From the NCBI GenBank assembly GCA_026387405.1, contig JAPLLV010000025.1, forward strand, positions 44,009 to 108,008: 64,000 nucleotides of DNA. Direction: 5' to 3'. Below the pieces are notes generated by a model. It was not told where the DNA came from. It worked only from the letters and a program-made list of their open reading frames with translations, and made no database searches. Position numbers and translations under genes: made by a program. This document shows, piece after piece, positions 10,143 to 57,572 of the stretch; within the stretch, counting starts at the first letter, position 1, and every line of letters begins with the position of its first letter. Source of the DNA: Candidatus Omnitrophota bacterium. Lineage in GTDB: Bacteria > Omnitrophota > Gorgyraeia > Gygaellales > Profunditerraquicolaceae.

Positions 10143-10523
10143 ATGAAGAAAGAAAAATTCATCTCTAAAATAATTTTTATTTCAGCTTTGTTAATTCCGT
10201 TTGCCCAAACTTTGTTATCCGGATGCCTTAAAGATAAAGCAGAAAAAAACATAAAGGTCATTAAGGCTAACGCCGAAACGATAATACCGGTAATTAAAGA
10301 GAAGCCATTAGCAGTTAAGGAATGGGAGTTGGTGTGGGGGGACCTGTGGAATAATGAGGCGGCAGAGTTCAAGAGAGAAGGAATCAGCGATGCCAAAATT
10401 GTCGAACAGCTGAACCCCATCGCCGCCGAACGAGTTTCCAAAAGGCTTAACATGGGTAAAGACAAAGTAAGGCAAATTGTGGATGATTATTATACTGCTT
10501 TAAATCAACCAAAAGCTAAATGA
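10143..10523 (+). CDS. small lipoprotein, unknown function
   Basis: SD AAAGGAGGT 6 nt upstream of ATG 10143. Signal peptide with lipobox LLSGC. Confidence 0.5.
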   Translation: MKKEKFISKIIFISALLIPFAQTLLSGCLKDKAEKNIKVIKANAETIIPVIKEKPLAVKEWELVWGDLWNNEAAEFKREGISDAKIVEQLNPIAAERVSKRLNMGKDKVRQIVDDYYTALNQPKAK

Positions 10524-11929
10524 AATTTTCGCATTTTAAGATATTTTCGCGAAGGAATCTGTTGATTCTGATCGTGGGTTTTTTTGTTCTGAATAATCTC
10601 ATATGGTGGAACTATAATAAGTTCATCCAGGGGCCTGACGAAGGCAAGCATCTCTTTCTCAGCGTCCTTAATCTGAAGAGGTACCCGGAGCAGATTTTCT
10701 TTAACTTCGCACCTTTTGAGACACCCCTTTATTATCTCACCGCAGATATTTTCTACAAGATCCTGCACAGTACCTCCTACCATGTTTCTATGTTGAATAA
10801 TATCTTCTATATGATACTGCTTTTAGCGGGTGTAAGCAGGTTGGAGCGGATTTTTCTGGGTACCTCAGGGTTGTTATCCCCAATCTTCTTAATGTTTATT
10901 CCCCAATTGGCGGTCCATTCAAGGTTCTTTAACCCGGATATCGCTTTATGCGCGATAATTGCCTGGTTAGCGTATTCTTTAAAAAAATTGTATGATGAAC
11001 CCAGGCTGCTATATTTTTTCATGAGTTTGTTATTCATATCTTTAGGCTCATATACAAAAATTTCATTTTTAGCCTTTTGCGTTCCGCTCATATTGTATTA
11101 CCTATTCCTTTCCCTTAAGAATAAGCAACTCATTAAGGTGCGCTATATCTTTATCTTGGCAGCTATGCAATTTATTGTATTCTATGCGTTTTATCCAGGG
11201 ATAGTAAATCACCTGAGCTGGTACGGCAAAGCAAAGGTATTTGGCACCCAATATGGAGGGGGCGCATCGCCATTTGTCATCCCCTTTAAATATTATGAGA
11301 AAGGTCTTTCTGGAAAGATCCAGGAAGAGTTGTTCTTGATCCTTAACTCCCGCCTCGGTTTAGTAATGTTTGTTTTCTTTATCTTCTCTATCATAGCGCT
11401 AATGGTTTCTCGAATGAAAAGACAGGATAAGGGGTGCATAATTACTTTTTTTATCGGGAGCCTGCTGGTTTTTACTCTCGGCACTTACTTGTACCTTGAG
11501 GATCGCTATCTTATACCCCTGGCTGTCTTTGAGTCTATTGTTATCGCCTACGGAGTCAACTTCTTGTTTAGAAAAAGAATTGTTTATAAATCAATCGCCA
11601 TAGTTTTCCTGTGTCTTTGTCTGGCGCAATATTACGGAATATCTTATTCGAAACGGTTCATAGAGCATTTTTCAAAGTTTAGGATTTTTAACACAGTGGT
11701 AAATCTAACTTATTATCCGTATACTTCTCAGAATAGAATTATTTGGGGCTTGCCCTATCCCGATAATCCCGCCGAGAGGATAGTTTCTATAATGCAAGAT
11801 AATTTTAAAAAAGGCATAGATTATAAAGTTTATTTTCTGGATACGTACATTTCGGATGACTATACGAAGAGTTCTTTCGCCTTTTTCCTTTCCAACAGGG
11901 TTAATTACTCTCCTGCGTGCAGAAAATAG
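10520..11929 (+). CDS. GT-C-fold membrane glycosyltransferase (ArnT/PMT_2-like)
   Basis: Polytopic membrane protein with an acidic DE-containing first periplasmic loop (GPDEGKHL), as in ArnT/PMT. Confidence 0.6.
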   Translation: MKFSHFKIFSRRNLLILIVGFFVLNNLIWWNYNKFIQGPDEGKHLFLSVLNLKRYPEQIFFNFAPFETPLYYLTADIFYKILHSTSYHVSMLNNIFYMILLLAGVSRLERIFLGTSGLLSPIFLMFIPQLAVHSRFFNPDIALCAIIAWLAYSLKKLYDEPRLLYFFMSLLFISLGSYTKISFLAFCVPLILYYLFLSLKNKQLIKVRYIFILAAMQFIVFYAFYPGIVNHLSWYGKAKVFGTQYGGGASPFVIPFKYYEKGLSGKIQEELFLILNSRLGLVMFVFFIFSIIALMVSRMKRQDKGCIITFFIGSLLVFTLGTYLYLEDRYLIPLAVFESIVIAYGVNFLFRKRIVYKSIAIVFLCLCLAQYYGISYSKRFIEHFSKFRIFNTVVNLTYYPYTSQNRIIWGLPYPDNPAERIVSIMQDNFKKGIDYKVYFLDTYISDDYTKSSFAFFLSNRVNYSPACRK

Positions 11930-12692
11930 CGATTGTTGCTCTGCATTTAAAGAAGCAAAGCTAATCCCCCTAGAGGATAAAGAGCTTTTTAGCGAATTCT
12001 GTGAGAATGCCAAGTTCCAATTCTTTAAGAAATTATCTATTTATAATCCTGTTGCCGAAAAAGAAGAGAGCTTTATCCTTTATATCAGGAAAAACAGGAA
12101 TTTCTTTAGCGAGGAGACTCGTAAGTTGGCGAAGATCTTTAAGGGTTTTAAGCTTTTTGTAGTGCTTAAGGATAATACCATATTGGATATAAACAGGTCC
12201 TGCGAATTCAGGCGTAACGGAGAAGATTTCTCTATCGAATGGCCGGGGAGCAGGTTTTCAATTAAGGGTAGAATTGAATCCGGTGGTGATAGGGGCCTAG
12301 GATTTATTTTCTACTCCGATAGGATAAATGATATTAAGTTGATCCAGATGGCCGTGTCCGTATTCTCCGACCGGAATTTTTATTTCAATGAGAACGGGAG
12401 CTTCAGGCTGCTGGAAGGGAAGCTTGAGGTGCCTACCCTTATGAGTAATAACAGGTTTTCCGAGGGATTAAGAACCTCAGGCATAACTAAATACTTTACA
12501 TATGAACCGCGTATTCCTTACGATGACTATTTCTCGCAGATTGAATTCGTAAACAAAGAGGAGATAGACCTGGTATATGGCTTGAGGCCTTCTGTTGCCG
12601 CCAAGAGCCCGGGGGAGTTGTTTTCGATACGCATCAGTGACACCCTAAGCGATAAAGGCGTCTCTAAACCATGGGGGACTGTCAAACCGTGA
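11856..12692 (+). CDS. hypothetical soluble protein (start uncertain)
   Basis: 278 aa ORF with ATG at 11856 that overlaps the upstream gene by 74 nt. No alternative start lies just after the upstream stop. No family recognised. Confidence 0.35.
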   Translation: MTIRRVLSPFSFPTGLITLLRAENSDCCSAFKEAKLIPLEDKELFSEFCENAKFQFFKKLSIYNPVAEKEESFILYIRKNRNFFSEETRKLAKIFKGFKLFVVLKDNTILDINRSCEFRRNGEDFSIEWPGSRFSIKGRIESGGDRGLGFIFYSDRINDIKLIQMAVSVFSDRNFYFNENGSFRLLEGKLEVPTLMSNNRFSEGLRTSGITKYFTYEPRIPYDDYFSQIEFVNKEEIDLVYGLRPSVAAKSPGELFSIRISDTLSDKGVSKPWGTVKP

Positions 12693-14642: not shown

Positions 14643-15612
14643 CTATAACAGTGAAAAGTCCATTGGTAGAACCCTTGCGGCGATAAGAGGGTCTTCGTAT
14701 GGCCAATATGAATTAATCGTCGTAGACGACGGCAGCAGCGACCAGACTGCCCTGATTGCAGAGAAATACGCGGATAAACTTATCAGGCTTCCCTGTAATT
14801 CGGGGAAGAACAACGCGCGCAGAAAGGGCCTCGGGGCCGCCAGTGCAGAGATAATAGTCAACATAGATTCCGATGTTGTTGTTAGGCCCGATACCTTGGC
14901 TAATATATCTAATTACTTTAGCGAACACCCCGAGACCGGCGCTATAACGGGGCTGTTTTCTAAGCATCATCCCAACGATGATTTCTTCAGCCAGTACAAA
15001 AATCTTTACATGCATTACATTTTCAAAAGATTGCCGGAAAAGGTTACCTTTTTATTCGGATCGATCTACGCCATACGCAAGGAGTCGGCAGTTATTTGCA
15101 ATAATCATTACAAGTTCGGCGAAGATACTGCCTATGGGCAGCAGCTGGTTTCTTGCGGAAGACAGATAGCTTTTTTAAACGACCTGGAAGTGACCCACCT
15201 TAAGAAATATAATTTTTTCTCATTGTTAAAAAATGATTTCCGGATTGCTTTTTATTGGGCAAATATTCTTATAAAATATAAAGGATGGGAACAATTGGGA
15301 AAAAATAAGATAGGTTTTGCCCATTCTCCCGTTGAGCAATTGATAAGCGTTGTCCTGGCATTTTTAATATCCTTGTGCGTCTTTGTGCCTTTATTGAGAA
15401 ACCTCAAATTTTTAGCGGCTTCTTTTTGCCTGGTTATCTTATGGCTCGTCCTTAATTTAAGGTTCTTTTGGTTTTTGTTTAGGGAAAAAGGCTTGCTGTT
15501 TATTCTGGGTTCCATTTTTTTAACTTTTTTGGATAACATTGTCATGGCATCAGGGATAATATTGGGTCTGGTGTTCGGATTAACTTCTTTTTTCCGCGAT
15601 GATAAAGAATAA
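14614..15612 (+). CDS. GT2 glycosyltransferase with C-terminal TM helices
   Basis: LSVIVPSYNSEKSI…VVDDGSSDQT…DSDV, followed by four hydrophobic helices. Confidence 0.75.
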   Translation: MPGLSVIVPSYNSEKSIGRTLAAIRGSSYGQYELIVVDDGSSDQTALIAEKYADKLIRLPCNSGKNNARRKGLGAASAEIIVNIDSDVVVRPDTLANISNYFSEHPETGAITGLFSKHHPNDDFFSQYKNLYMHYIFKRLPEKVTFLFGSIYAIRKESAVICNNHYKFGEDTAYGQQLVSCGRQIAFLNDLEVTHLKKYNFFSLLKNDFRIAFYWANILIKYKGWEQLGKNKIGFAHSPVEQLISVVLAFLISLCVFVPLLRNLKFLAASFCLVILWLVLNLRFFWFLFREKGLLFILGSIFLTFLDNIVMASGIILGLVFGLTSFFRDDKE

Positions 15613-17105
15613 GTATTATCTGGCCCTTTTTTTGCTTATAGCATTTCACTTAGTGAATAACTATATCTGGATAAAAAAAGATGCCGAAAGCCTGGGGTGG
15701 GATGTCTGTCATCACGTAGATATCACTGTCTCTGTGCACCATGAATTAAAGGAGGTTATTCTTGCGAAGATGCCATTATACCAGAAGGCATCTCAGATAG
15801 CCCGCATCTTTACATCAGGCAGGTTAGAGTGGCCAAGGTTTGTGCATTTTTTTGCCGCAGCGATCTCTCTGCCGGCGCAAGACATGCTTTTTTCTTTCCG
15901 CTTTACGAATATATTCTACCTTTTAATCATGATCATAAGTGTTTATCTAATAGGCACGCTTATCAGCGGCCCTCAGGCCGGGGTACTTTCCGCGGCGTTG
16001 GTTTCATTTTACCCGGGCCTGTTTCAAAATTCACGTAAATTCGGCCTGGATTTTCCTTTGGCGGCCGTAGTATGCCTATCTATTTATTTACTTTTGGCCT
16101 CAAATCAATTCAGGGAACGAAGATACAGCTTATTATTTGGCATAGTAACCGGTATAGGGGCATTGATTAAGGGGCAGATCCTTGTCTATGTATCAGCGCC
16201 CGTGCTTTATTCGTTCTTCCTCATATTCAAAGAGAGGCGCGCCCTCCCCTCCGGCACGCTAAAGAATATTTTAATGTCCGCAATAAGTTTCACGGCGATA
16301 GCGCTTATCTGGTGGCACAGGGTATTTTCTCATGAGATGGTATTTGCCCTCGATAAGCATATGGCGTGGGGGTCTTTTCCTGAACCAATACCCAGTCCAT
16401 TGCTCGAAAGATTTCAAGGGTTTATAACAGATACTTATCTGAATATTTCTCCTGCCCTTTTCTGGGTGTTTATCGCCCTATAACTACAGATATACCTATC
16501 CTATCTTTGGGTCTATTGCGTTGATTTCAGTTATCGGGCTGTCGGAATTGCCGCTAAAAAAATCAGTTCGGTTTTCCATGTTCTGGTTGATTATATGCTT
16601 TTCGTGTTTTCAATTTTTTCATATAAGCTATTTCAGGATTATAAGGCGATCCCAGGCAGCTACAGAGTGGTCGCACCCTCCGAGAAATAATAATCACAGG
16701 CAGATTGTCAGGATGTTTAATGAAGAGATAGAGAAATCTTCGGTCTCCCTGCGGAATGTCGGGATTATCGAAGAGAGATACATGAACGGCGACCGCTGCG
16801 TAAGATTGGGTTATTTTTTGAAGGTCCTGGATAGACATAATCTTGTGTCTTTGAGCGCGGGTGGGATTTACCCCTCAATGACAAAAGACGAATTTTTAAG
16901 AAGCGCACAGGACCTGCAGTTTCTGATTGCTTTTTCTCAATCTGCGGCCGGCCCGGACCTCGCGGGACTTATGGATTTTTCTGAAGGAGGGCAGAGAGAT
17001 AAAGCCGCCAAGGCTGTAGCGTTATTTCGGGGATTTAAGATCGTAAGATCCGCTTTGCTTTTTCCTGAAGGGTTGCGCGTCTTCCTTCTAAAACGGGAGC
17101 AGTGA
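15599..17105 (+). pseudogene. GT-C membrane glycosyltransferase paralogue interrupted by a frameshift (15599-16483 in one frame; continues in another frame from about 16443 to 17105)
   Basis: The first ORF aligns with the N-terminal half of the 7335 protein. The downstream ORF aligns with the following part of that paralogue (LSELPLKKSVRFSMFWLIICFSCFQF vs FAGDRKKKLILIWIIFSYLFFTFCSLKV). The two frames overlap over 16443-16483. Confidence 0.5.
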
Positions 17106-17106
17106 A

Positions 17107-18669
17107 ATGAGCTATTCCGGCTCGATGAACAAAGGTTGGAGTGAAGAACCCGGGAAATCACGTTTGATTATACTGTTGATTTTTCTGCTGGCTTTATTCT
17201 TGAGGCTTTATGATCTGGGGGGAGAGAGCATTTGGCTTGATGAAGCCGCAAGTATCAGTTTTTCGAAAGGCACGTTATTTCAGGTAATCAACCGCATAAG
17301 CGGATTAACCTACAATATCTGCTTGTACTTTTGGATTAGGCTGTTCGGCTCTTCTGAAGTTTCTGCGCGTTTGCCTTCCGCGATATTCGGGTCTCTGGTA
17401 GTTTTTATGATTTATAAAGTAGGAAGGTCTCTTTTTAATAAAAAGACGGGAATGGCCAGTTCTTTATTGGCGGGCCTGTCTATTTTTTATATCCAATATT
17501 CACAGGAAGCCCGTTCCTATATTCTTACAACGCTATTGACATTAGTTTCGATGTATTTTTTTATCAGGTTGTTGGAAAAACGCAAACTCTGTATTTCAAT
17601 AGGCTATATGGTATCCAATATCCTCTTGTTATATGCACACCCCTTTGCTATTTTGATCCCTCTTGTACAGAACCTGTATTTTTTTACTTTATCACCAAGA
17701 TCAAACGGAAGAAAAGGGAATTCTCTTAAGATCTGGCTTTTTCTCCAGCTCCCGTTATTTATATACTTTTTCCAGGGTATCAGCAGTTACGTCGCGGTTT
17801 TTTATCGAGTAAAGGAAACCATGGTTGATTTATGGATACCCAGGCCCGCGCCCATATCTATCCTTGTTTCTTTTCTAGAATTTTCTGGGTCGCTGTCCCT
17901 GATGGTTTGTTTTTTTATTTCTTCGTTATTTTCATTGTTAATTTTTGAGAAAATAAGGGGAAAACTAAATTTTAAGATTATTCTCGGCTCATTAGCGGAT
18001 TTTAGATGGAACATGTACTTTTCCGATATCCAGAGTAATTATTTTCTGATTTTATGGCTATTTTTCCCCATACTTGCGCTCTTTATTTTCTCTGTTTTTT
18101 TTATACCATCATATTGGACGCGGTATCTAATAATCTCTTCGCCGGCTTTTTATTTACTTGCCGGGCATGGGATAAGTAATCTTAAGGACTTCTTTACTAA
18201 ACTGATCTTACTTACCGCTATTGTTGTTTTTTCATTAATAAATATCCATAGTTACTGGCGTGATGTCAATAAAGAGCCATGGAGGGATGCCGCCGGGTAT
18301 GTCCAAAGAAAAGCACTTCCTAAAGACTCCTTAATTTTTATCGCGCCTTACGCGAGATGCCCGTTTGATTATTATTTTACCAGGAAGGATGTGCAGGAAA
18401 TTGCTACTACTCCGGATCCGGGTTTTATTGCAATTACCGGAGAAAAAATAAGGCTTCTGAATGAGATTATAGGGGCAAAAGAAAGGGTTTGGGTGATACT
18501 GTACCATTATAGGGACCCCCGGGGGTTATTAAAAGAATACTTTAGCAGCCATTTTCAAATATCGGTTAAAAAAGATTATAGTCGCGCGCGGTTTCTAAAT
18601 CTTAAATTCCAGAATTTTATTAACACTCAAGAGATCGCCATAGAGGTCTATTTGTTGAAGAAAAAGTGA
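17107..18669 (+). CDS. GT-C-fold membrane glycosyltransferase (ArnT/PMT_2-like)
   Basis: N-terminus LRLYDLGGESIWLDEAASISF matches the ArnT/PMT_2 loop-1 DE motif. About 12 TM helices and a C-terminal soluble domain. Confidence 0.7.
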   Translation: MSYSGSMNKGWSEEPGKSRLIILLIFLLALFLRLYDLGGESIWLDEAASISFSKGTLFQVINRISGLTYNICLYFWIRLFGSSEVSARLPSAIFGSLVVFMIYKVGRSLFNKKTGMASSLLAGLSIFYIQYSQEARSYILTTLLTLVSMYFFIRLLEKRKLCISIGYMVSNILLLYAHPFAILIPLVQNLYFFTLSPRSNGRKGNSLKIWLFLQLPLFIYFFQGISSYVAVFYRVKETMVDLWIPRPAPISILVSFLEFSGSLSLMVCFFISSLFSLLIFEKIRGKLNFKIILGSLADFRWNMYFSDIQSNYFLILWLFFPILALFIFSVFFIPSYWTRYLIISSPAFYLLAGHGISNLKDFFTKLILLTAIVVFSLINIHSYWRDVNKEPWRDAAGYVQRKALPKDSLIFIAPYARCPFDYYFTRKDVQEIATTPDPGFIAITGEKIRLLNEIIGAKERVWVILYHYRDPRGLLKEYFSSHFQISVKKDYSRARFLNLKFQNFINTQEIAIEVYLLKKK

Positions 18670-32803: not shown

Positions 32804-33931
32804 CTATTCTTTTCTCTCTTTTGTAGCCAGGCAAGTTCCATAGAGCATCCACCAGATAAGACTTACTTCGGGGAGAAAGAAGCTAAAGTCGATAAAATTA
32901 TGGGCCAGGAATGCCGAACAAGCAGCTAAGAGCGCGGCATTTTGTTTTATTTCGGAGGAATTTTTTAGCCGTAAAATAGCGCCTTTAAAAATTACAAAAA
33001 TCAGCCACAGGAATGATGTTATCCCCAAGACCCCCGTTTCCGCCCAGAGCTGTAAATAAGAGTTATGGGCGTAGCGTGCCTGCGGCAGATTAAAATTTCC
33101 CAGTCCTACCCCGGTTAATGGATAGGAGCCGATGATTTTTAACGTATCCTGCCAATAGCCAAGCCGCATGGTTGCGGAGAATATAGGATGGATATGCTGT
33201 TTTCCCGTTATCCACCTTAAGCCAAACACTATTCCAATTATCAATAATAAGCTGGTCAGTAAAATAATCCCTCTTTTCTCTATTTTTCCTTTCAGATAAA
33301 AATAGGCCGATAGAGCCAGAAAAGCGCTTAGCAGGCCACCTAATGATTTTGTCAGGAATAAAGCCAAAAAAAGCGGCAAAAGAGCGAAAGTTTTATATCT
33401 ATTTAAGAGGGCAAGCGGGATTGTCATGGCCAGGTAGCCCGCTAAAATATTCGGCGTTACAAAAGGAAAGAATACGCGCCTGCGCTGGATATAATCTAAA
33501 GTGAAATCGGAAGTAATATTATGGCGGGTCAGATACTCTGACACATGCCTGAAGCCAAAAAAATACTGGTAGATAGCCAGTAGGGCTATGATTATTCCGG
33601 AGTAGACTACGATATTAACGATTTGTTTTTTATTTTTTTCCGCAAGGGTTGCACCGAAGATTAACAGCAGCATACCGGTCACATATTTGTAGAGTTCGCT
33701 AAGGCTGTTAAGCCTGTTTTGCGAGAAGGAGACTGAGATTATAAGAGCAAGGGAGAATAAAAGAAGGGGGTAGACGACAGTTTTTAAGTTTTTAAAAGAG
33801 GGCTTTTTGAAGATGACCCAACCGGCTAAACAAGTCGCCAGAAGAATGGAATAGAAATAATTGGCATAAGGGAATGCCAGGGAAGAGATAAAAGGGCGGA
33901 TGAAGATTAGAATTAGAAGAACGCTTAACAT
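32804..33931 (-). CDS. O-antigen ligase / polymerase family membrane protein (Wzy_C-like)
   Basis: Polytopic protein with the periplasmic-loop motif RLGYWQ…GVGLGNF…AHNSYLQLWAETG, characteristic of WaaL/Wzy_C. Confidence 0.75.
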   Translation of the reverse strand: MLSVLLILIFIRPFISSLAFPYANYFYSILLATCLAGWVIFKKPSFKNLKTVVYPLLLFSLALIISVSFSQNRLNSLSELYKYVTGMLLLIFGATLAEKNKKQIVNIVVYSGIIIALLAIYQYFFGFRHVSEYLTRHNITSDFTLDYIQRRRVFFPFVTPNILAGYLAMTIPLALLNRYKTFALLPLFLALFLTKSLGGLLSAFLALSAYFYLKGKIEKRGIILLTSLLLIIGIVFGLRWITGKQHIHPIFSATMRLGYWQDTLKIIGSYPLTGVGLGNFNLPQARYAHNSYLQLWAETGVLGITSFLWLIFVIFKGAILRLKNSSEIKQNAALLAACSAFLAHNFIDFSFFLPEVSLIWWMLYGTCLATKERKE

Positions 33932-33950
33932 TATGCTATAATTTTAGCTT

Positions 33951-34913
33951 ATGAGGCAAGTATTGTCAAAGGAATTGGTAAGCGTCGTTGTGGTAAGCGC
34001 TAAAGACAGCGATTACCTTAAGGCGTGCCTGGATTCGATCAAGGGGCAAGACTATCCTCGCGTAGAAGTTTTTCTTATCGACACGTCGGATGCGCATGAT
34101 CTAGGTCAAGGCCTGGCCGGCGATTATCCCTTTATGACATTGTGTCATAGTTCCGGCGCCTCCTACTGTCAGGCATTAAATATGGGCATAGAAATTTCCA
34201 GGGGTAAGTTTATCCTTTGCCTGAACGACGACGTAATCTTGGACAAAAGTTTTATCCAGGAGGCGCTTAAGGGGTTCGCCGTCAGTAAGAACATAGGGAT
34301 GGTTAGCGCAAAGGTGCTGCGTTTTGATAAAAGAACCATAGACAGCGCCGGACTACGGTTGAGTATCTGGTGTACTGCCAAAGAGCGTGGTTACGGCAGA
34401 CAAGACAAGGGGCAGTTTGAAAAACAGGGGTTTGTGTTTGGGGTAGGGGGGGCAGTTGCTTTTTACCGCAGAGAGATGCTTGAACGGATTAAGCTAGAGG
34501 GAGAATATTTCGATAATGATTTTGGGTTTTTCTATGAAGACCTGGATGTTGCTTGGCGTGCCGAGCGCCACAGATTCCGCGGATACTATATTCCTACGGC
34601 GGTTGCCTATCACCTGCGCGGTTTAACGACACGCAAGGGCCGGGGTATCGATAAACCCTTTGCCCGCAGATTTTTGGATGACGAATTGCACGCCGGCCTT
34701 ATTAAAAACCGTTACCTGACTGTGATCAAGAATGAACGCCTATTCAACTTTATCCTGCATCTTCCTTTTATTTTTTTATATGATTGCGTAAGCTGGGGTT
34801 ATATTTTTTTGTGTAAAAGAGCCGTAATCGGGTATTTTTTGCGCAATTCCGGATGTTTTAAGCGCGCTTTTAGAAAAAGAAAAGAAAAGCAAGGCTCATT
34901 TTTATATTCCTAG
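33951..34913 (+). CDS. GT2 glycosyltransferase
   Basis: VSVVVVSAKDSDYLKACLDSI…NDDV. C-terminal region paralogous to the 13782 ORF. Confidence 0.75.
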   Translation: MRQVLSKELVSVVVVSAKDSDYLKACLDSIKGQDYPRVEVFLIDTSDAHDLGQGLAGDYPFMTLCHSSGASYCQALNMGIEISRGKFILCLNDDVILDKSFIQEALKGFAVSKNIGMVSAKVLRFDKRTIDSAGLRLSIWCTAKERGYGRQDKGQFEKQGFVFGVGGAVAFYRREMLERIKLEGEYFDNDFGFFYEDLDVAWRAERHRFRGYYIPTAVAYHLRGLTTRKGRGIDKPFARRFLDDELHAGLIKNRYLTVIKNERLFNFILHLPFIFLYDCVSWGYIFLCKRAVIGYFLRNSGCFKRAFRKRKEKQGSFLYS

Positions 34914-35013
34914 TAGTGTATCTGTAAGAAAATAATATGGTTGTAATGGCTAACTTGAAGTCTGGGCTAATCTTTTTCAAGAATTACCGTTTGTCTTCAA
35001 GGCTATCTTCCCG

Positions 35014-36786
35014 ATGAATATTTTCTGCCAGCGAATTTTTAAAAATATATCAGGAATACATAAGGTTATTTTTGTCTTAGTTTTAATAGCCCTGTTGGTG
35101 CGAATCCCTCTTTCGTTGATTAGATATTTTGACCCGGATGAATTTGAACATTTGCATGCCGCGCGTAACATTTATCATGGGATGGTTCCATACAAGGATT
35201 ACTTTGACCATCACACGCCTTTTTTCCACGCCTTTCTTTCTGCATTTTATATTTTCTTAGCAGATAAAATACAATTGATCTTCTTGGCGCGCTTCTTCAT
35301 GATTTTATTTACTGGCGGCATATTATATATGACCTATCGCATTGCGAAATTATTATATGGCGTAAACATCGCTTTATATTCAGTAGTATTTCTTAGTTAC
35401 GTCGTAATGTTTCAGGAAAAAACCTTAGAGATCAGAACTGACTTGCCGGCAGTTATTTTCTTACTTTTGAGTATCTATTTGTTTATGTTGGGAATGCAAG
35501 ATCAAGATAAACACGAGAGAAAAAGACAAAGGGATCACTTCCTGATGTCCGGTGTTACAATCTCTTGCGCGCTTCTTACGAATCAAAAGATGTTTTTTGC
35601 CATTTTTGCGCTACTTCTTATGTGGATTTGGGTTCTTTTTAATGGACATAGAAAGTTGTCTTTAAAAGAATGGTCTGGTCCGATATTATGGTTTATATTT
35701 GGTTTTTTTATTCCTTTCGGTATAACATGCCTATACTTTTCATTAAGCAACGCGCTGAAAGAATTTATCTATAGGTGCTTCGTAATGAATATATTGTGGA
35801 AAACCCGGTTTTTACCTTATCAATATGTTGGACAACTAATAATACAAAATCCATTCTTCAGCGTGTTAAGTGCGTTGGGTTTGTTATTTTCTACCTTCGC
35901 AGTATTTAAGAAAAAAAAGATACCCGATTATTATTTTGTGCCGGTATTCGTTACCTATGCATTTATAATCGGACTTTTTATTATTCGTGTTCCGCAGCGT
36001 CAATATTACTTATTTTTTATCCCTTTGTTGGCAGTTTATTGTGGTTTTGCTTTCCAGACGTTTATTGGATATTTTTCTTTTCACAATATTAAGGAACAAT
36101 GGAATAAGCAAAATTACTTGTATTTTGGTTTGATGCCCGTATTTTTGATAATAGTTTTATTGATCCCCTCTATGGTTACTTCCATTAGAATATATGGCGT
36201 TTTTTCAACTCCAGACAATAAACCTTACTTGATTTATGTTTTGCTGGGTCTGGTATCCGTATTATTTCTTTCTGGTTTTGCATTTTTTAGAGGCAAAAAA
36301 CAATTCTTTGCATTAATGCTAATGGTTTGTTTTTTATACCTCCCCTTTATAGAAACGTGTACAGAATTTTTAAAAAAGGATTGGAGGTTAAAATGTTCCA
36401 ATGTAGATCAATTGGATGAAATCAGATTCATTCTTCGGAATACGAATCCACAGGATACTATTTTTGATGGATTTAGGGGGACCGGGGTTTTCCGTAACCA
36501 AGCGTATTACTATTTCTTTTTGCATGCTGAAATTCAGAAGATGTTAACGCCCAGGGAGTCTTCGACAGATATCGTGGCGGCGCTACGCAATATGAAGCCA
36601 AAATTTGTAATTTATGATTGGTGCGTGGGAAGTCTACCGGGAGAAGTGAGGGCTTATATTAATGATAATTATACGCCGGTTCGTAAGGGAGAGATTTATC
36701 TGTCTTCTGATGAGACTACGGTTGTGGAATGGCGTAAATTTAGAAGACCGATATTGTTTCGGCTGAATCCTCGGCCAGCGCAATAA
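35014..36786 (+). CDS. GT-C-fold membrane glycosyltransferase (ArnT/PMT_2-like)
   Basis: Polytopic protein; first-loop motif FDPDEFEHLHAARNIYHG, DE-type. Confidence 0.65.
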   Translation: MNIFCQRIFKNISGIHKVIFVLVLIALLVRIPLSLIRYFDPDEFEHLHAARNIYHGMVPYKDYFDHHTPFFHAFLSAFYIFLADKIQLIFLARFFMILFTGGILYMTYRIAKLLYGVNIALYSVVFLSYVVMFQEKTLEIRTDLPAVIFLLLSIYLFMLGMQDQDKHERKRQRDHFLMSGVTISCALLTNQKMFFAIFALLLMWIWVLFNGHRKLSLKEWSGPILWFIFGFFIPFGITCLYFSLSNALKEFIYRCFVMNILWKTRFLPYQYVGQLIIQNPFFSVLSALGLLFSTFAVFKKKKIPDYYFVPVFVTYAFIIGLFIIRVPQRQYYLFFIPLLAVYCGFAFQTFIGYFSFHNIKEQWNKQNYLYFGLMPVFLIIVLLIPSMVTSIRIYGVFSTPDNKPYLIYVLLGLVSVLFLSGFAFFRGKKQFFALMLMVCFLYLPFIETCTEFLKKDWRLKCSNVDQLDEIRFILRNTNPQDTIFDGFRGTGVFRNQAYYYFFLHAEIQKMLTPRESSTDIVAALRNMKPKFVIYDWCVGSLPGEVRAYINDNYTPVRKGEIYLSSDETTVVEWRKFRRPILFRLNPRPAQ

Positions 36787-36893
36787 AATACTTTTCTCTA
36801 GCTAGGTAATTGTTGTCATAATTTTGCCCCCGCGATTTTTTGGCTTGGGATAGAGAGTATCTCAAGCGTTCGCGCGCTTTTAGAAAAAGATAC

Positions 36894-36923
36894 TTGACAA
36901 CCCCAATTTATTGTGATAAAAGA
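36894..36923 (+). promoter_or_regulatory. putative sigma70-like promoter in front of the ATP-grasp/KamA operon leader
   Basis: TTGACA at 36894-36899 with an A/T-rich -10-like ATAAAA about 16-17 nt downstream. The -10 is weak. Confidence 0.3.
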
Positions 36924-36998
36924 AGAGCATAGGCACAATATTTAGGAGAAAACTTTAGGAGGAAGAACAAAAAATTGGCAAATTAAAGGATAGTTTTT

Positions 36999-37032
36999 AA
37001 GGGCTCTTGGAACAAATGAGCCCTTATTTTTT
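36999..37032 (+). terminator. intrinsic terminator / attenuator hairpin 19 nt upstream of the first ATP-grasp gene
   Basis: AAGGGCTC-ttggaacaaat-GAGCCCTT followed by ATTTTTT. Confidence 0.5.
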
Positions 37033-37050
37033 AGATGAGGCCGCAACTTT

Positions 37051-38040
37051 ATGAAAACCGTTGGATTAACCTACGATTTAAAGACAGATTACAAATTTAA
37101 AGAAGGCGATCCGCAGGATGCCAACGCGGAGTTCGACCATCCTTCGACTATCGGCGTTATTGCCAAGGCCATAGAGTCGCAGGGGTACAAGGTAAAGAAG
37201 ATCGGCAATGTCACGGATGTACTGGAAAAATTAGATAACCTGGGAGTGGATATCGTTTTCAATATTTCCGAGGGCCTCTCGGGCAGGAACCGCGAATCCC
37301 AGGTGCCGATCTTGCTAGAGATGGCCGGTGTTCCTTTTGTGGGCGCCGACGCGCTTACCCTTGGCCTTACGCTCGATAAGATCATGGCCAAAAAAATATT
37401 TATCGCCGAAAAACTACCTACCCCGAAATTCTTTACGGTCAATACCGTGGAAGAACTGAATAACGCCGACCATTGTAAATTCCCCCTTATTGTTAAACCG
37501 CGATTCGAGGGTTCTTCCAAGGGCTTAAGCGACAGCTCGCGCGTGGAGAATATGGAAGAGTTAAAGATACAGGTAGAGCATACAATCTCCACCTATAAAC
37601 AGCCTGCCCTGATAGAAGAGTTTATCTCCGGCCAGGAATTTACCGTGGCCGTGGTTGGTAATGATCCCCCCGAAGCCCTGCCCGTGGTCCAGATAAAGAT
37701 CGACGGCAAGTTACAGTTGAACGATAAATTCTATACCTTTGCCAGAATAAAATCAGACAGGCTGGAATATATCTGTCCTGCTAAGATCCCCACGGAACTG
37801 AAGAACAAGCTTCAGGATCTAGCCGTCAGGACATATAACGCGGTTGAGTGCCGTGATTTCGGGAGGGTGGATTTCAGGGTGGATAGCGACGGTAAACCTT
37901 TTGTCTTGGAGATCAACCCTTTGCCCTCGCTCTCTACCGAAGACGTGTTTATGCTCTTGGCCAAGACAATAGGGATCACCTACGAAGAGATGCTTGACAA
38001 GATCCTGAAGGCAGCCTTAAAAAGGCACAATCTTAATTAA
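37051..38040 (+). CDS. D-alanine-D-alanine ligase-family ATP-grasp enzyme (copy 1)
   Basis: Ddl-like layout: N-terminal domain, then LIVKPRFEGSSKGL, the ATP-grasp lysine/Gly-rich loop, and C-terminal LEINPLPSL. Confidence 0.7.
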   Translation: MKTVGLTYDLKTDYKFKEGDPQDANAEFDHPSTIGVIAKAIESQGYKVKKIGNVTDVLEKLDNLGVDIVFNISEGLSGRNRESQVPILLEMAGVPFVGADALTLGLTLDKIMAKKIFIAEKLPTPKFFTVNTVEELNNADHCKFPLIVKPRFEGSSKGLSDSSRVENMEELKIQVEHTISTYKQPALIEEFISGQEFTVAVVGNDPPEALPVVQIKIDGKLQLNDKFYTFARIKSDRLEYICPAKIPTELKNKLQDLAVRTYNAVECRDFGRVDFRVDSDGKPFVLEINPLPSLSTEDVFMLLAKTIGITYEEMLDKILKAALKRHNLN

Positions 38041-38049
38041 AGGTATTAA

Positions 38050-39057
38050 ATGAAGATCGCGCTTACCTTTAACCTTAAAAAGAAAGACTCAACCAAACCG
38101 GCGGATTATTTTTCCGAGTTTGATTCCGAAGAGACCGTTGATGCGATCCGGGGCGCCCTGTACAAAAAAGGCCACAGCGTGGACCTGGTCGAGGCGCATC
38201 AGCAAAACCTGTTTTCTTATTTCCGGGATAACCGCGTGGATATGGTTTTTAACATTGCCGAAGGCACTTGCGGCAGGTTCCGCGAATCGGAGATCCCGGC
38301 CATACTGGATTATCTGGAAGTGCCTTACACCGGCTCAGACACATTTTCCCTGGCCCTGGCCTTAAATAAGGCCCTGACCAAAAAGATACTGCAGGCGGAA
38401 AATATTCCCACCCCGCGTTTCCAACTTTTCACTAAAGGTAACGAAGAGTTAAACCCTGACTTGATCTTTCCTTTGATCGTCAAGCCTAATTGCGAAGGCT
38501 CGGCCAAAGGCATCAATGCCGCTAATGTGGTACGCGACGAGAGCGCGCTTTTTAGAAAAGCGCGGGAGATAATAAAGGTTTATAGACAGGAGGCGCTGGC
38601 CGAGGAGTTCATTGAAGGGAAAGAACTAACGGTGGGTATCCTGGAAAACGGCAAGACCACGATCCTGCCGATACTGGAGATCGATTTTTCAAGCTGCGAA
38701 GGGAGCGGAGAGTATTTTTATTCCTGGAGGATGAAGGAATATCAGGGTGACGAACAGCAGAGGCTCACGCCCACTTTTCACTGCCCGGCGCGCCTGGATA
38801 AGGATACTGAAAGGCGCGTAAAAGAGGTGGCACTCAAGACCCATCACGCGGTGGGATGTCTAGATATCTCCCGTACCGATATACGTTTAAGCCGCGATAA
38901 CATCCCGTATGTCCTTGAGATAAATCCTTTGCCCGGGCTCGATCCCAAGGAATCTAATCTTCCCCTCATGGCCTATGCCGCGGGCATGAAATACGAAGAC
39001 CTTATTGAAGCGATCCTTATAAGCGCTGCTAAGCGTAAGAAAGCGGGGCTCAATTGA
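38050..39057 (+). CDS. D-alanine-D-alanine ligase-family ATP-grasp enzyme (copy 2)
   Basis: Paralogue of the upstream gene (LIVKPNCEGSAKGI; LEINPLPGL). Separated from it by 9 nt. Confidence 0.7.
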   Translation: MKIALTFNLKKKDSTKPADYFSEFDSEETVDAIRGALYKKGHSVDLVEAHQQNLFSYFRDNRVDMVFNIAEGTCGRFRESEIPAILDYLEVPYTGSDTFSLALALNKALTKKILQAENIPTPRFQLFTKGNEELNPDLIFPLIVKPNCEGSAKGINAANVVRDESALFRKAREIIKVYRQEALAEEFIEGKELTVGILENGKTTILPILEIDFSSCEGSGEYFYSWRMKEYQGDEQQRLTPTFHCPARLDKDTERRVKEVALKTHHAVGCLDISRTDIRLSRDNIPYVLEINPLPGLDPKESNLPLMAYAAGMKYEDLIEAILISAAKRKKAGLN

Positions 39058-40232
39058 CGAACGCGACCATAACCGAGGTTCAAAAGCTCCAGCCTGATGC
39101 GCCTGTCCGTAGATCCCAGCGGGCTCGCGATTACCAGCAGATAAGCCTGTATAAAGACGTTAATCCCCTGGATTGGGAGGATTGGCACTGGCAGCTCAAA
39201 AATAGGATCTGCACCAAGGAAGACCTTGCCCAGGTGATAGTTTTGAGCCCCGAAGAGGAAGAGGGCTTAAAAAAGGCAAGCGGAAAACTTTCTTTGGCCA
39301 TTACCCCATATTGGGCGACTTTAATGGACCCCGAAGATCCCAATTGTCCTATCCGGCGCCAGGCCGTGCCTACGGTGTACGAAACGCTTGTCGGTCCCCA
39401 CGAAATGGTTGATCCTTGCGCCGAAGACAGGGATTCTCCCGCCCCGCACCTGGTGCACCGTTATCCGGACAGGGTCTTGCTCCTAGCTACCGAACATTGC
39501 GCGATGTATTGCCGCCACTGCACCAGAAGGCGCCTTGTGGGGGAGACCAATAAAGAGGATAACTCGCCTTCCCGTTTTGATGCGGCTTTAGAATATTTAA
39601 AAGCGAACAAAAAGGTGCGGGATGTTTTGATCTCCGGGGGCGACCCGCTTACCCTGGAAGATGACGTAATCGAGGATCTGCTGCGCAAGATCCGCGACAT
39701 ATCGCATATTGAGTTCTTAAGGCTGGGTACGCGCGTGCCGGTGACATTGCCGCAGCGCATCAATGAGAAATTGGTTACCATGCTTAAGAAATATAACCCG
39801 CTCTGGATGAGTATCCATTTTAACCACCCCAAGGAGATAACCAAACGTTCTAAGATCGCCTGCGAAATGCTGGCAGATGCCGGTATCCCGCTGGGGAGCC
39901 AGAGTGTGCTCTTAAAAGGCATTAATGACCGTCCTTATATTATGAAGAAGCTGGTGCATGATTTATTGCAGATAAGGGTGCGGCCGTATTATATTTATCA
40001 GTGCGATCCCGTCCGGGGCACGCAGCATTTCCGCACCCCGGTTGCCGTAGGCATCAACATTATGGAGAAGCTGCGCGGCCATACCTCGGGCTACGCCGTG
40101 CCTACCTATGTCATTGACGGCCCCGGCGGCGGCGGAAAAATCCCCGTAGGCCCCAATTATATCCTTTCGCAGGCCAAAGGTAAGTACGTGCTCCGCAATT
40201 ACAAGGGTAAGATCTACACTTATCTGGAATAA
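39054..40232 (+). CDS. kamA: lysine 2,3-aminomutase (KamA-family radical SAM)
   Basis: HRYPDRVLLLATEHCAMYCRHCTRRR matches the KamA CX3CX2C region. The C-terminal half is KamA-like. TTG start overlaps the upstream stop (TTGA). Confidence 0.8.
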   Translation: MTNATITEVQKLQPDAPVRRSQRARDYQQISLYKDVNPLDWEDWHWQLKNRICTKEDLAQVIVLSPEEEEGLKKASGKLSLAITPYWATLMDPEDPNCPIRRQAVPTVYETLVGPHEMVDPCAEDRDSPAPHLVHRYPDRVLLLATEHCAMYCRHCTRRRLVGETNKEDNSPSRFDAALEYLKANKKVRDVLISGGDPLTLEDDVIEDLLRKIRDISHIEFLRLGTRVPVTLPQRINEKLVTMLKKYNPLWMSIHFNHPKEITKRSKIACEMLADAGIPLGSQSVLLKGINDRPYIMKKLVHDLLQIRVRPYYIYQCDPVRGTQHFRTPVAVGINIMEKLRGHTSGYAVPTYVIDGPGGGGKIPVGPNYILSQAKGKYVLRNYKGKIYTYLE

Positions 40233-40242
40233 GTTTTTCCGC

Positions 40243-40271
40243 TTGACCCTCCCCAATGGTTGGTATATAAT
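40243..40271 (+). promoter_or_regulatory. sigma70-like promoter
   Basis: TTGACC at 40243-48, 17 nt spacer, TATAAT at 40266-71. About 115 nt upstream of the EF-G-like ATG, which has an AAGGAG SD. Confidence 0.5.
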
Positions 40272-40387
40272 CAAGAAAATCGCTTTCAGCGATCTTCGCG
40301 GTAGTATAGAAAGCTATATATTTTCCATACTATAATAATTTTAATACCCTTACCTATATATAGCCGCAAGAAAAGGAGCTAGCCGCT

Positions 40388-42346
40388 ATGGAGCCTAAAG
40401 ATAAACGTAATTTTATCCTCTTGGGCCATGCCCAGTCCGGTAAAACCACGCTTTCTGAAAGTATCCTCTATTTAGCTAAGGCAACCAGCCGTAAAGGCAC
40501 TACCGCAGATGGTAATACGGTAAGCGATTACAATTTTGACGAGATTGAAAAAAAGAGCTCCATAAACGCCAGCCTGCTCTATTGTGATTATAAAGGCACG
40601 AGGATCCAGATGATCGATGCCCCCGGTTACGCGGATTTTTTAGGCGAGGTTATTTCCGGCTTACGCGCGGTAGATAGCGCGGTAGTGATAGTAGACGCGA
40701 CCGCGGGAGTTGAGGTAGGGACAGAGCGCGCCTGGCAGTTCCTGGAGGAATTCTCCCTACCCTGTATTATTTTCATTAATAAGACGGATAAACCCGAAGC
40801 CGATGTAAATAAGACCTTGTCGGATATCAAGTCGCGCTTTTCAAAGAGCGCGATGGTGGTCGATAAGCTTGACGCCCCGGAGTTAGTAGAGGCTATTGCC
40901 GAAAGCAATGATTCACTGCTGGAAAAATATTTAGAGGGTAAGGCCTTAACACCCGAAGAATTAGTTTCAGGGTTGCGTAAGGCGGTATTCGGCCGCAAGG
41001 TCTTTCCCGTAGTGATAGGTTCGGCCTCAACCGATAAAGGGGTAGCGGAGTTACTCGACCATGTTATAAAATATCTGCCGAATCCCCTGGAGCGCCAGCC
41101 TATCAAGGCGCGGCAGGCGGATAAACCGGATAGCGAGCAGGAATTAGCCTGTAGCGCAGACGGTCATCTAGCCGCCTTTGTCTTTAAGAATATTTCTGAC
41201 CCCTATGTGGGGCAGTTGACATTTTTACGTATTTTTTCCGGCACCCTGGCTTCGAACACCGCCTTTCACAATGTTAATAAAGAAACCAAAGAGCGCATCG
41301 GCACTATCTACATTATGCAGGGCAGAGAGCAAAAAGCCGTGGATACCGCCAGCTGCGGTGATATCGTGGCCCTGGCAAAATTAAAAGGGACCGCTGCTTC
41401 GGATTCCATCGGTAATGATAAGGGCCGCGTTATTTTTGAACCGATGGTATTCCCTGAACCGGCTATCTCGGCTTCGGTAAAGCCAAAATCGCGCGAAGAC
41501 GAAGAGAGGATTTCCGAGGCCCTACATAAATTAGCTGCGGAGGATCCTACTTTCAAGGTCACCCATGACCCCCAGACCAAGGAATTGATCATTTCAGGGC
41601 TAGGCGATCAGCACCTGGCGGTTATGGTAGGCAGGCTGCAAAAGCGTTTCAAGGTTGAAGTCGAACTTGGCAAGCCCAAGGTTTCCTATAAAGAGACGAT
41701 TACTAAGAGCGTCAAGGTGCAGGGAAAATTCAAACGTCAGTCAGGGGGCAGGGGCCAATACGGGGATGTCTGGATCGAGATCGAGCCTTTAGGACGGAGT
41801 GAGGGTTTTGAGTTCGTGGATAAGATTTTCGGCGGGGCTATCCCCAGGAATTTTATCCCCTCGGTTGAAAAGGGCGTGGTCAATGCCTTGGTTCAAGGGG
41901 CAGTTGCCGGTTATCCGATAGTTGATGTGCGGGTGAGGCTGGTAGACGGCTCATACCATGAGGTGGATTCCTCGGATATGGCTTTTCAGATCGCGGGGGG
42001 CATGGCTCTAAGAAAAGCCGTGCTTGCCGCCGGGCCCGTATTATTGGAGCCGATCATGGATGTAGAGATAACCATCCCGGAGGAGTGTTTGGGCGCAATA
42101 TCCGGAGATGTTAATTCCCGGCGCGGACGGATCATGGGTATGGATGTTAAAGCCAAATCCCAGATTATCAAGGCCACCGTTCCATTGTCGGAGATGTTTA
42201 CCTATGCCAATGATCTACGTTCCCTTACCGGGGGAAGAGGGACTTATATCATGCGTTTTTCGCATTACGAAGAGGTGCCGCACAAACAAGCCTCGACCAT
42301 TATCAGCCAGTATCAGGCCTCCAGGAAGCCCGAAGAAGAACAATAA
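40388..42346 (+). CDS. EF-G-family translational GTPase paralogue (divergent; switch-II His replaced)
   Basis: All EF-G domains are recognisable: G domain, domain II, and domains IV/V with SGGRGQYGDVWIE. G1 is GHAQSGKTT, switch I lacks RGITI, and switch II reads DAPGYADF instead of DTPGHxDF. G4 is NKTD. Confidence 0.75.
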   Translation: MEPKDKRNFILLGHAQSGKTTLSESILYLAKATSRKGTTADGNTVSDYNFDEIEKKSSINASLLYCDYKGTRIQMIDAPGYADFLGEVISGLRAVDSAVVIVDATAGVEVGTERAWQFLEEFSLPCIIFINKTDKPEADVNKTLSDIKSRFSKSAMVVDKLDAPELVEAIAESNDSLLEKYLEGKALTPEELVSGLRKAVFGRKVFPVVIGSASTDKGVAELLDHVIKYLPNPLERQPIKARQADKPDSEQELACSADGHLAAFVFKNISDPYVGQLTFLRIFSGTLASNTAFHNVNKETKERIGTIYIMQGREQKAVDTASCGDIVALAKLKGTAASDSIGNDKGRVIFEPMVFPEPAISASVKPKSREDEERISEALHKLAAEDPTFKVTHDPQTKELIISGLGDQHLAVMVGRLQKRFKVEVELGKPKVSYKETITKSVKVQGKFKRQSGGRGQYGDVWIEIEPLGRSEGFEFVDKIFGGAIPRNFIPSVEKGVVNALVQGAVAGYPIVDVRVRLVDGSYHEVDSSDMAFQIAGGMALRKAVLAAGPVLLEPIMDVEITIPEECLGAISGDVNSRRGRIMGMDVKAKSQIIKATVPLSEMFTYANDLRSLTGGRGTYIMRFSHYEEVPHKQASTIISQYQASRKPEEEQ

Positions 42347-42379
42347 CCAAAAGCTTTATTATAATAAGGATAAAACAAA

Positions 42380-43081
42380 ATGAAGATAAGCGTATTTTCT
42401 ATCTCTACTCTTACGCCGGGGAAATATAATATCAAGGACCAGCGCCTTGACGCCGTGGACAAAATAGTCAAGGCCAAGAAAAAAACCTATGTGCAGGTGG
42501 AGGTGGTCGGAGCGGAAGCGGTATTCGAAGCAGACGCGCTTCTGGCGCTTGAAGATATGCGTTCGGACCTGATCCTAAGGGACCTGGAGTTCATAGAGAC
42601 GCGCCTCGGCCGTTGCGGCGATGAGAAGGAAAAAGGACTTTTGCTCAAACTTAAAGGGATCCTGGAGAAAGAGCAGTTTCTTTTTAGCGCCGGCTTGGGG
42701 GAAGAAGAAATCCAGTCCATGGCAAGCTATAGTTTGGTAACCTTAAAACCGGTTGTTATGGCCAGGCAGGAAGAGACGGATAACCCCAATGATCTATTGG
42801 CCAGGGCCCTCAGAGAAAGCGGGTATTTGAGTTTTTTTACCGCCGGGGAGAAAGAGACGCGCGCCTGGTTGATCAGAAAAGGGACTTCTGCCTGGGAGGC
42901 CGCGGGGGTAATACATTCAGATATCCAGAAAGGGTTTATCCGCGCCGAGATCATCGGTTACGATGATTATATTAATGCCGGCGGCGAGACTCCGGCCAAG
43001 CAGCAGGGGAAGATGCGCCTGGAGCAAAAAGAATATGTGATGCAGGATTGCGATCTGGCGAATTTTAGGTTTAACAAATAA
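42380..43081 (+). CDS. YchF/Ola1-like protein lacking the P-loop and most of the G domain (coiled-coil + TGS domains retained)
   Basis: C-terminus TRAWLIRKGTSAWEAAGVIHSDIQKGFIRAEII…GKMRLEQKEYVMQDCDLANFRFN aligns closely to the YchF TGS domain. The N-terminus starts after the position of the Walker A motif. About 50 aa around G3/G4 are also missing. Confidence 0.7.
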   Translation: MKISVFSISTLTPGKYNIKDQRLDAVDKIVKAKKKTYVQVEVVGAEAVFEADALLALEDMRSDLILRDLEFIETRLGRCGDEKEKGLLLKLKGILEKEQFLFSAGLGEEEIQSMASYSLVTLKPVVMARQEETDNPNDLLARALRESGYLSFFTAGEKETRAWLIRKGTSAWEAAGVIHSDIQKGFIRAEIIGYDDYINAGGETPAKQQGKMRLEQKEYVMQDCDLANFRFNK

Positions 43082-43092
43082 AGATAATTGAA

Positions 43093-43168
43093 AGTCATTG
43101 CGAGGAGGCCGAAGGCCGACGAAGCAATCCCTAAAACGTGATTGCTTCGCACTTCGTGCTCGCAATGA
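43093..43168. repeat. small palindromic repeat element, intergenic copy (TIRs GTCATTGCGAG / CTCGCAATGAC, inner hairpin)
   Basis: Terminal inverted repeats plus an internal stem CGAAGCAATC-loop-GATTGCTTCG. A second copy lies in-frame inside folC at 45127-45270. Confidence 0.5.
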
Positions 43169-43190
43169 CAACAGATAATAGGGGGACAAG

Positions 43191-44783
<1,593 letters not shown>

Positions 44784-44831
44784 TGAGTATATCGCAACGA
44801 TAAGCGATTAGCGATATGCGATAAGCAAATA

Positions 44832-50723: not shown

Positions 50724-52205
50724 ATGCAAAAAAATAAAAAAAGAGCAATAGCAAAAGGTGTTCTATATTTTGTTATTTGTTTCTTTGGTTTTGTAATCCC
50801 TGCTTCAGCAGAGGTTGCGGTAGCGGATAATAAAAATCTCACCTTCAATATCCTGCCATATCTTAGAACAGACGTAGTCACCTTAAAGAATAACATTGGC
50901 CTGGATAGCAGAAATAAAGACGACTCTTCGACTTATTTCGGTGTTGACTACAGTTTAGGATTCGACCTTAAATTTAAAGACAGCGGTCCCGAGGCATACC
51001 TGAAGTTAGAGAGAAACGGCCCCTATGACTACGATGCGCCGCTATTTATCCGTAATACATTAAGGACATCCACCGCGCAGGCAGAGAGGTACCGCGGAAA
51101 CGAACTATTACCTCACGTAGAGGAATTCTGGTATGACACTCCTTTATTTGAACTTCCTTTAAGGCTCAAGAGCGGACTTTTTGCTTACCATGCGGCTAAT
51201 GACCTCGCCGTACCCGCCAGCTACGAGAATTATTCACTTAGCTTATATAGAGAAAATGAAAATTTAAAGTGGCACTTTTATTATTGTAAACCAGATTTGG
51301 TTAATAAAAGTTACCTGGGGCCGCGCATTAAACAAGAGAGAGAGCAGGGTATCCATTATACGCCTAATAAGGCCAACTTTTTTGCTACAGACGCAGTTTT
51401 CACTTTCAAAAATAATTCCTTGCAACCCTATGTAGAGGTTCTTTCCGATGGTTCCGGAGATAGTCGCGCAAATCTTTTTTCTACGCCCACGCATAATGAT
51501 TTATTGGGCACTCTCGGCCTTGCCTGGAATTCCACTTTTGATAAATTATCTATAGCGATAGAAACAGCCAGGAATTTCGGAAAGGTACAGAGCAGCGATG
51601 AGAATTTCAAGGACGTAGAGCATTGCGGGTATCTTTTATACGCGGATGCCGCGTATAATTTTGAACGGATAATCCCGCATTCCAGGTTTGTCCTTGCTTC
51701 AGGCAACAAAGTTACTACGGATATGGTAGATAATGGAGATGAGGTGTTGACCAGCGGCAAAAATCGTGCTTTTAGCGCCTACTCGCCGTTCAATACCAAT
51801 TTATTAGATTCGATATATCCTGACGCGAATAATCTGCCTTTAGTGGCTATGGGCGCAGGCAATGGGTTGAATTACGGCATCAACCGTCCCACCACCTTTG
51901 GAGACCCCCGGTTATTTGTTCTTGACTGGTGGTATTTAAGGGCAATGGAAAGAGGGGTAGGCACCTTTGAAGGATCAAGTAAGATGCTCTCACCCGATTT
52001 AGGCAACGAATTGGATCTATCTTTTAATTACGAACTTAATAAAAATATTACTCTTGGCCTGTTGAGCGGTTGTTTTTTACCGGGGAGATATTACAAGGAA
52101 GACAGGGATGATACAGAAGGTAGTCTTTTCACCCCCTTTGTGCGGGGCGATGGCGAGGCCGACCCTGCCTATCAGATCGAATTAAGCTGTACTTTAACTT
52201 TTTAA
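50724..52205 (+). CDS. secreted protein, probable outer-membrane beta-barrel
   Basis: N-terminal signal peptide, alternating amphipathic beta-strand pattern, C-terminal …LSCTLTF ending in Phe. Confidence 0.5.
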   Translation: MQKNKKRAIAKGVLYFVICFFGFVIPASAEVAVADNKNLTFNILPYLRTDVVTLKNNIGLDSRNKDDSSTYFGVDYSLGFDLKFKDSGPEAYLKLERNGPYDYDAPLFIRNTLRTSTAQAERYRGNELLPHVEEFWYDTPLFELPLRLKSGLFAYHAANDLAVPASYENYSLSLYRENENLKWHFYYCKPDLVNKSYLGPRIKQEREQGIHYTPNKANFFATDAVFTFKNNSLQPYVEVLSDGSGDSRANLFSTPTHNDLLGTLGLAWNSTFDKLSIAIETARNFGKVQSSDENFKDVEHCGYLLYADAAYNFERIIPHSRFVLASGNKVTTDMVDNGDEVLTSGKNRAFSAYSPFNTNLLDSIYPDANNLPLVAMGAGNGLNYGINRPTTFGDPRLFVLDWWYLRAMERGVGTFEGSSKMLSPDLGNELDLSFNYELNKNITLGLLSGCFLPGRYYKEDRDDTEGSLFTPFVRGDGEADPAYQIELSCTLTF

Positions 52206-57542: not shown

Positions 57543-57572
57543 TGGGCTTATTGTAAAAAATGGAGGGGGGAT

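Follow-up and report, generated by a model that had tools for sequence, protein, structure and literature searches.

The polyprenyl-phosphate-sugar-dependent glycosyltransferases of the GT-C class (PMT_2, CAZy GT39- and GT83-like) include structurally characterized enzymes such as ArnT (5EZM), STT3, AglB, PglB, ALG12 and Pmt4. In bacteria such as Campylobacter, Haemophilus and Neisseria, glycosyltransferase genes are found as phase-variable contingency loci carrying homopolymer or short tandem repeat tracts. Genes may also be broken in the databases only: local assembly errors in uncurated metagenome-assembled genomes (MAGs) leave public databases with protein-coding genes that are incomplete or wrong, and 13 such errors were found in an example genome of 1.13 Mb (Chen, Anantharaman, Shaiber, Eren and Banfield 2020, Genome Res, PMC7111523). 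Such errors are short stretches of consensus that depart from the true sequence, corrupt genes and occur several times per genome.

The locus discussed here, a split GT-C gene in an Omnitrophota MAG, lies in a 64-kb stretch of one contig (the window) and can be compared with each of these systems. It is like the GT-C enzymes in its PMT_2 match, its fold and its invariant acidic residues, and unlike those of solved structure in that sequence identity to them is just 10-15% and that the window copy is interrupted in the contig. As in phase-variable glycosyltransferase loci, a glycan-biosynthesis gene is out of frame, but the lesion has no repeat tract and is an irreversible 98-nt deletion of unique sequence. 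It also parallels the local assembly errors of MAGs, with the differences that the error is in our case inferred (rather than demonstrated) by comparison with independent assemblies instead of read support, and that the density is higher (3 in 48 kb as against 13 in 1.13 Mb). We consider it probable, at roughly 0.8, that the split reflects a local error in the assembly of the deposited MAG and that the gene is intact in the organism.

Two halves of a single gene

The split gene appears in the window as a 294-aa ORF at 15599-16483 (ORF1) and a 194-aa ORF that runs from a TTG start at 16521 to 17105 (ORF2). The ORF2 frame, which is +1 relative to ORF1, is open from 16443 and overlaps the ORF1 frame over 41 nt (16443-16483). 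An earlier note on this DNA had described the pair as a frameshift-disrupted GT-C paralogue whose parts align consecutively to the intact paralogue at 7335, with the break in the overlap. Both ORFs exist as it described them, and so does their order on the paralogue: residues 26-246 are aligned for ORF1 (34% identity, E 7e-34), then residues 357-574 for the ORF2 frame (23% identity, E 9e-4). Because they align in order, the two can be read from their sequence as consecutive halves of a single GT-C (PMT_2/GT39-like) glycosyltransferase gene, and ORF1 by itself matches Pfam PMT_2 with 51 bits (gathering score 26.1, E 2.5e-13). The lesion is a deletion of 98 nt and not a frameshift of 1-2 nt, and a stretch of about 35 paralogue residues (321-356) is therefore unmatched between the two halves.

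In the deposited MAG the split gene is annotated as a 'glycosyltransferase family 39 protein' of 276 aa (MCX5696758.1; locus-tag prefix NTU54), and our database search recovered its N-terminal half as a 276-aa protein (P0003) encoded on a contig of 117,611 nt. The record also seems to list another protein, numbered between MCX5696758 and MCX5696760, which probably represents the C-terminal fragment. In the ORF2 frame, the 12 initial codons (IFLLPFSGCLSP, within 16443-16483) are non-coding for the GT-C gene, the open frame upstream of 16479 being fortuitous.

Coordinates of the features discussed in the text (window numbering; start positions only for genes listed in groups)
Feature	Position	Strand	Remarks
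PMT_2/GT39-type genes of the glycan cluster (n=6)	910, 7335, 10520, 15599, 17107, 35014		
Intact GT-C paralogue, 574 aa	7335..9059	+	Reference used in the earlier note
Second split GT-C gene, 752-aa PMT_2 protein	10520..12692	+	86 nt (3n+2) missing at 11907/11908
N-terminal part of the split GT-C (PMT_2/GT39-like) gene	15599..16483	+	Residues 1-293 identical to P0019
Junction, 98 nt (3n+2) missing	16477..16478	.	Blunt, 0 nt microhomology
C-terminal part of the same gene	16479..17105	+	+1 frame; 100% identical to P0019
Downstream GT-C paralogue (PMT_2)	17107..18669	+	Neighbourhood conserved beside intact alleles and orthologue P0002
Radical-SAM genes, B12-binding type	2726, 5840, 22143, 26830		
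Radical-SAM genes, SPASM type	20983, 25666(-), 28297(-), 31501(-)		
Further radical-SAM gene	24541		
Wzy_C gene	32804-33931	-	
Gene of 513-aa protein, Alginate_exp beta-barrel-like (weak match; outer-membrane beta-barrel)	50724..52205	+	60 nt missing, in frame

An intact allele of the gene is found in independent assemblies, and this, like the exact lesion and the lack of other divergence described below, was observed directly. This allele encodes a protein of 534 aa (P0019), which falls in the same 90%-identity cluster as the N-terminal half of the split gene, is encoded on 15 contigs and scores 49.1 bits against PMT_2, above the gathering score. It consists of residues 1-293 of ORF1, 33 extra residues (GLFVYLRRLDKKKILILCWLSAPYIILSGFLSF) and the ORF2 frame from YNYRYTY on, and is identical to the window on both sides of the extra segment. 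At the DNA level, BLASTN found the 98 nt to be present in the aligned contigs of all eight runs that align across the junction (ERR15302224, ERR15302187, SRR20698638, SRR20698639, ERR15302165, SRR25046532, ERR15302205 and ERR15302170), with flanks 99.98-100% identical to the window. Putting the 98 nt back into the window yields an ORF of 1605 nt whose product is exactly P0019.

More distant relatives tell the same story. Using the conceptual fusion of the two gene halves as a query, two intact orthologues of 552 aa each were found, P0001 (60% identity) and P0002 (57%), with 99% of the query covered, and the homologous segment is kept within a single ORF in both of them and in six more distant family members. 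A scan of genome contigs for relatives found none, while a scan of metagenome contigs re-found the P0002 locus only.

Anatomy of the deletion

The break that the earlier note had located somewhere in the 16443-16483 overlap could be placed exactly, at 16477/16478 (atcgcc/ctataac, the 30-mer across it being TGGGTGTTTATCGCCCTATAACTACAGATA). The missing 98 nt, GGGCTATTCG...CTTGAGTT, span codons 294-326 of P0019. When the window was aligned at the DNA level with the two orthologous loci, it showed one clean gap of 98 nt, and in the protein and codon alignments the motifs FWVFI and NYRYTY are separated by 35 codons in every intact member, as against 7 nt in the window. A simple frameshift of 1-2 nt was rejected on the basis of these DNA and codon-level alignments. 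The converse scenario, an insertion in the other assemblies rather than a deletion in the window, was rejected as well, since the corresponding 33 residues are also encoded in orthologues that are 57-60% identical.

The loss amounts to 33 codons, or 1.4 transmembrane helices, and shifts the frame: residue 293 of ORF1 is followed by one aberrant codon (cta) and then by a premature stop (TAA, 16481-16483). When the lost residues are placed on the predicted model of P0001, they cover the C-terminal part of helix 304-319, the next loop and the whole of helix 323-342. Beyond the deletion, the gene resumes at Y327 in the numbering of the intact allele (YNYRYTYPIFG...), and this remaining part, which extends to the stop codon, contains the final transmembrane helices together with the alpha/beta domain of the C-terminus.

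No homopolymer, direct repeat or microhomology was found at the junction, and TRF detected no tandem arrays. The closest homopolymers are a G5 at 16368 and an A7 at 16556, and 7-nt homopolymers are found elsewhere in the split gene at 15627, 15673 and 15847 in addition to 16556. A deletion mediated by repeats or slippage was rejected given that direct repeats, tandem repeats and microhomology are all absent at the junction. As a separate observation, the distant orthologues P0001 and P0002 have an A8 run (codons N-K-K-K; ~1110-1120 in L001 and ~1030-1040 in L002) inside the segment that is missing from the window. The intact allele of the same species has an interrupted version of this run (GATAAAAAGAAAATA), which has no bearing on the lesion in the window.

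Enzyme family and predicted structure

The identity of the enzyme was addressed with an AlphaFold (AF2) model of orthologue P0001 (pLDDT 83, pTM 0.85), which displays a multi-helix membrane domain and, at its C-terminus, an alpha/beta domain of ~130 aa. A Foldseek search of the PDB with this model returned 27 matches at E<=1e-3. Those listed are all GT-C enzymes, namely STT3, AglB, ArnT (TM-score 0.57-0.59), ALG12, ALG9, AftA, PglB and Pmt4, with a probability of 1.00 for STT3, AglB, ArnT, ALG12 and PglB. The predicted model thus confirms the GT-C fold for an orthologue that is 60% identical, rather than for the window protein itself. The PMT_2 match, the paralogue alignments and the Foldseek matches of the orthologue agree with each other, and the earlier note was right to call the gene a GT-C paralogue of the one at 7335. 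NCBIfam gave no family or equivalog match for the intact proteins.

The first loop downstream of TM1 carries two acidic residues, D28 and D35 in window numbering (motif KKDAESLGWDV), that do not vary among nine family members and are probably the catalytic/donor-binding acidic residues of the first extracytoplasmic loop. Family membership predicts that the enzyme takes its sugar from a polyprenyl-phosphate donor and glycosylates an extracytoplasmic acceptor, an assignment for which the neighbouring GT2 genes and a Wzy_C gene provide context.

Genomic neighbourhood

The gene is one of six PMT_2/GT39-type genes in a large glycan cluster, which also holds several GT2 genes, a GT4 gene, a GT8 gene, a Wzy_C gene and many radical-SAM genes. 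Positions 1-37000 of the window are unusually rich in the latter, which are interleaved with the six GT-C genes, the GT2/GT4/GT8 genes, the Wzy_C gene and the gene of a GDSL-TPR protein. Further downstream, the independent contigs L021-L023, which come from three runs, all stop exactly at position 43123. Exact purH, folC and mnmE products (43191-48924) are found in the NCBI MAG only, Logan yielding non-identical members of the same clusters or none, and GC content climbs from ~0.42 to 0.50 near 38 kb. The region around 43123 (38000-46000) may be either a strain-variable region or a mis-join.

Other deletions private to the contig

The window was tiled with independent contigs over 48.4 of its 64 kb (all but 33640-37073, 43124-48060 and 56764-64000). 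Only three structural differences private to the window were found in the 48.4 kb compared, and all three are deletions, of 86, 98 and 60 nt. Over the ~29.9 kb compared in L013, L017, L021 and L024, which includes the three sites, there were 0 substitutions and 0 small indels.

The 86-nt loss affects a second GT-C gene, which is split into ORFs at 10520-11929 (469 aa) and 11856-12692 (278 aa). The 60-nt deletion, at ~51914-51916 (with a 2-nt ambiguity), removes 20 aa, LENLLLFNLGLDYKFTDKLS, from an outer-membrane beta-barrel-like protein. Re-insertion of the missing bases restores the 752-aa and 513-aa proteins exactly. As with the 98 nt, the bases missing at these two sites are kept in every aligned contig that reaches them (4 runs at 11907/11908 and 6 at ~51916). 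Junction microhomology is 0 nt at 11907/11908 and 2 nt at ~51916, and repeats and homopolymers are absent.

Origin of the deletions

Our preferred reading is that of an assembly error. The gene of the organism would be intact and encode an ordinary 534-aa polyprenyl-phosphate-sugar-dependent GT-C enzyme belonging to a glycan-biosynthesis cluster of this Omnitrophota bacterium. In the MAG contig, 98 nt at 16477/16478 would have been dropped by a local error of assembly or scaffold joining, which would be enough to eliminate 33 codons, shift the frame and introduce a stop two codons later, and the deletions at 11907/11908 and ~51916 would be two more errors of the same kind. The earlier note had listed a sequencing or assembly indel among its options, and this is the one that is best supported, except that the indel is a blunt deletion of 98 nt and not a small frameshift. 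The nature of the junctions, blunt and repeat-free, is unlike what replication slippage or recombination produce. Moreover, three repeat-independent deletions of 60-98 nt accompanied by 0 substitutions in ~30 kb do not make a credible mutational spectrum for a real lineage; extrapolated genome-wide, three in the window would mean on the order of a hundred such deletions in that lineage, which is not credible. What speaks against an artefact is that two of the three deletions are in GT-C surface-glycan genes, a class often inactivated in real populations. GT-C genes make up ~27% of positions 1-33.6 kb, and by length the chance of two of three deletions falling in them is ~0.07.

The main competitor, a real and very recent deletion private to a strain, is unlikely. 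The sampled sub-lineage would have lost the 98, 86 and 60 nt, and the GT-C gene would be a nascent pseudogene with a 294-aa product devoid of the last helices and the C-terminal domain. The lesion is indeed unambiguous in the contig, and the position of two of the three losses in surface-glycan GT-C genes would fit. Against this, three blunt losses stand beside a complete lack of substitutions and small indels, the junctions have no repeats and next to no microhomology (0, 0 and 2 nt), the missing bases are kept in all aligned contigs that reach the sites, and the lineage would need to form the consensus in the MAG's own sample and nowhere else. The truncated 294-aa and 469-aa products were found in no other assembly, in a look-up that needs identical gene calls and would miss a minority deletion allele. 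Less likely still is the more elaborate scenario of a sub-lineage in which two of the six GT-C surface-glycan transferases have just been knocked out and an outer-membrane beta-barrel trimmed, for example under selection on phage or host attachment and by an unusual repeat-independent deletion process.

No signal of decay is seen. Tajima relative-rate tests against six outgroups were non-significant for both gene halves, and the window deviates at 1 of 41 family-invariant columns in the N-terminal half and 3 of 28 in the C-terminal half, within the range of intact members. Outside the deletion, the split gene is 100% identical to the intact allele. A pseudogene in the sense of a decaying paralogue, another option of the earlier note, is not supported: both protein halves match the intact same-species allele completely, there is no acceleration or relaxed constraint, the gene is intact on 15 contigs and the 98 nt are present in all eight aligned runs. 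The absence of a decay signal is consistent with an assembly error, and it fits a very recent real event equally well.

A slippage-prone, phase-variable (contingency) switch of a surface-glycan gene, which had been the third suggestion, is extremely improbable. Phase-variable loci of other bacteria typically involve this kind of gene family and a glycan-cluster setting, and 7-nt homopolymers are present elsewhere in the gene. However, the homopolymer tract sought around 16440-16490 is lacking at the junction, as are tandem repeats at or beside it and microhomology, the two alleles differ by a unique blunt deletion and not by the number of repeat units, and the same full-length allele is found in every aligned run. 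A slippage switch is therefore excluded, since the deleted sequence is unique, its loss is irreversible and there is no tract at the site. That the gene is expressed in its disrupted form, through programmed +1 ribosomal frameshifting or as an enzyme that functions in two pieces, has similarly negligible odds in spite of the +1 frame of ORF2 and the 41-nt overlap. There is no conserved slippery site because the junction is unique to this contig. Programmed frameshifting is excluded by the single-ORF structure of every orthologue and of the same-species allele, and by a shifted product that would still be 33 residues short, which in the P0001 model means all of helix 323-342 and a portion of helix 304-319.

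Implications

There is nothing biologically novel in this locus, and its main value is as a caution. MCX5696758.1 (276 aa) covers half of an enzyme of 534 aa, at least two further genes of the contig are corrupted likewise, and several short deletions, in all probability made during assembly, create false split genes. For glycan clusters of Omnitrophota, tallies of pseudogenes, decaying genes or phase variation taken from this assembly would be misleading. If the deletions were true, they would add a modest case of surface-glycan genes that were inactivated recently.
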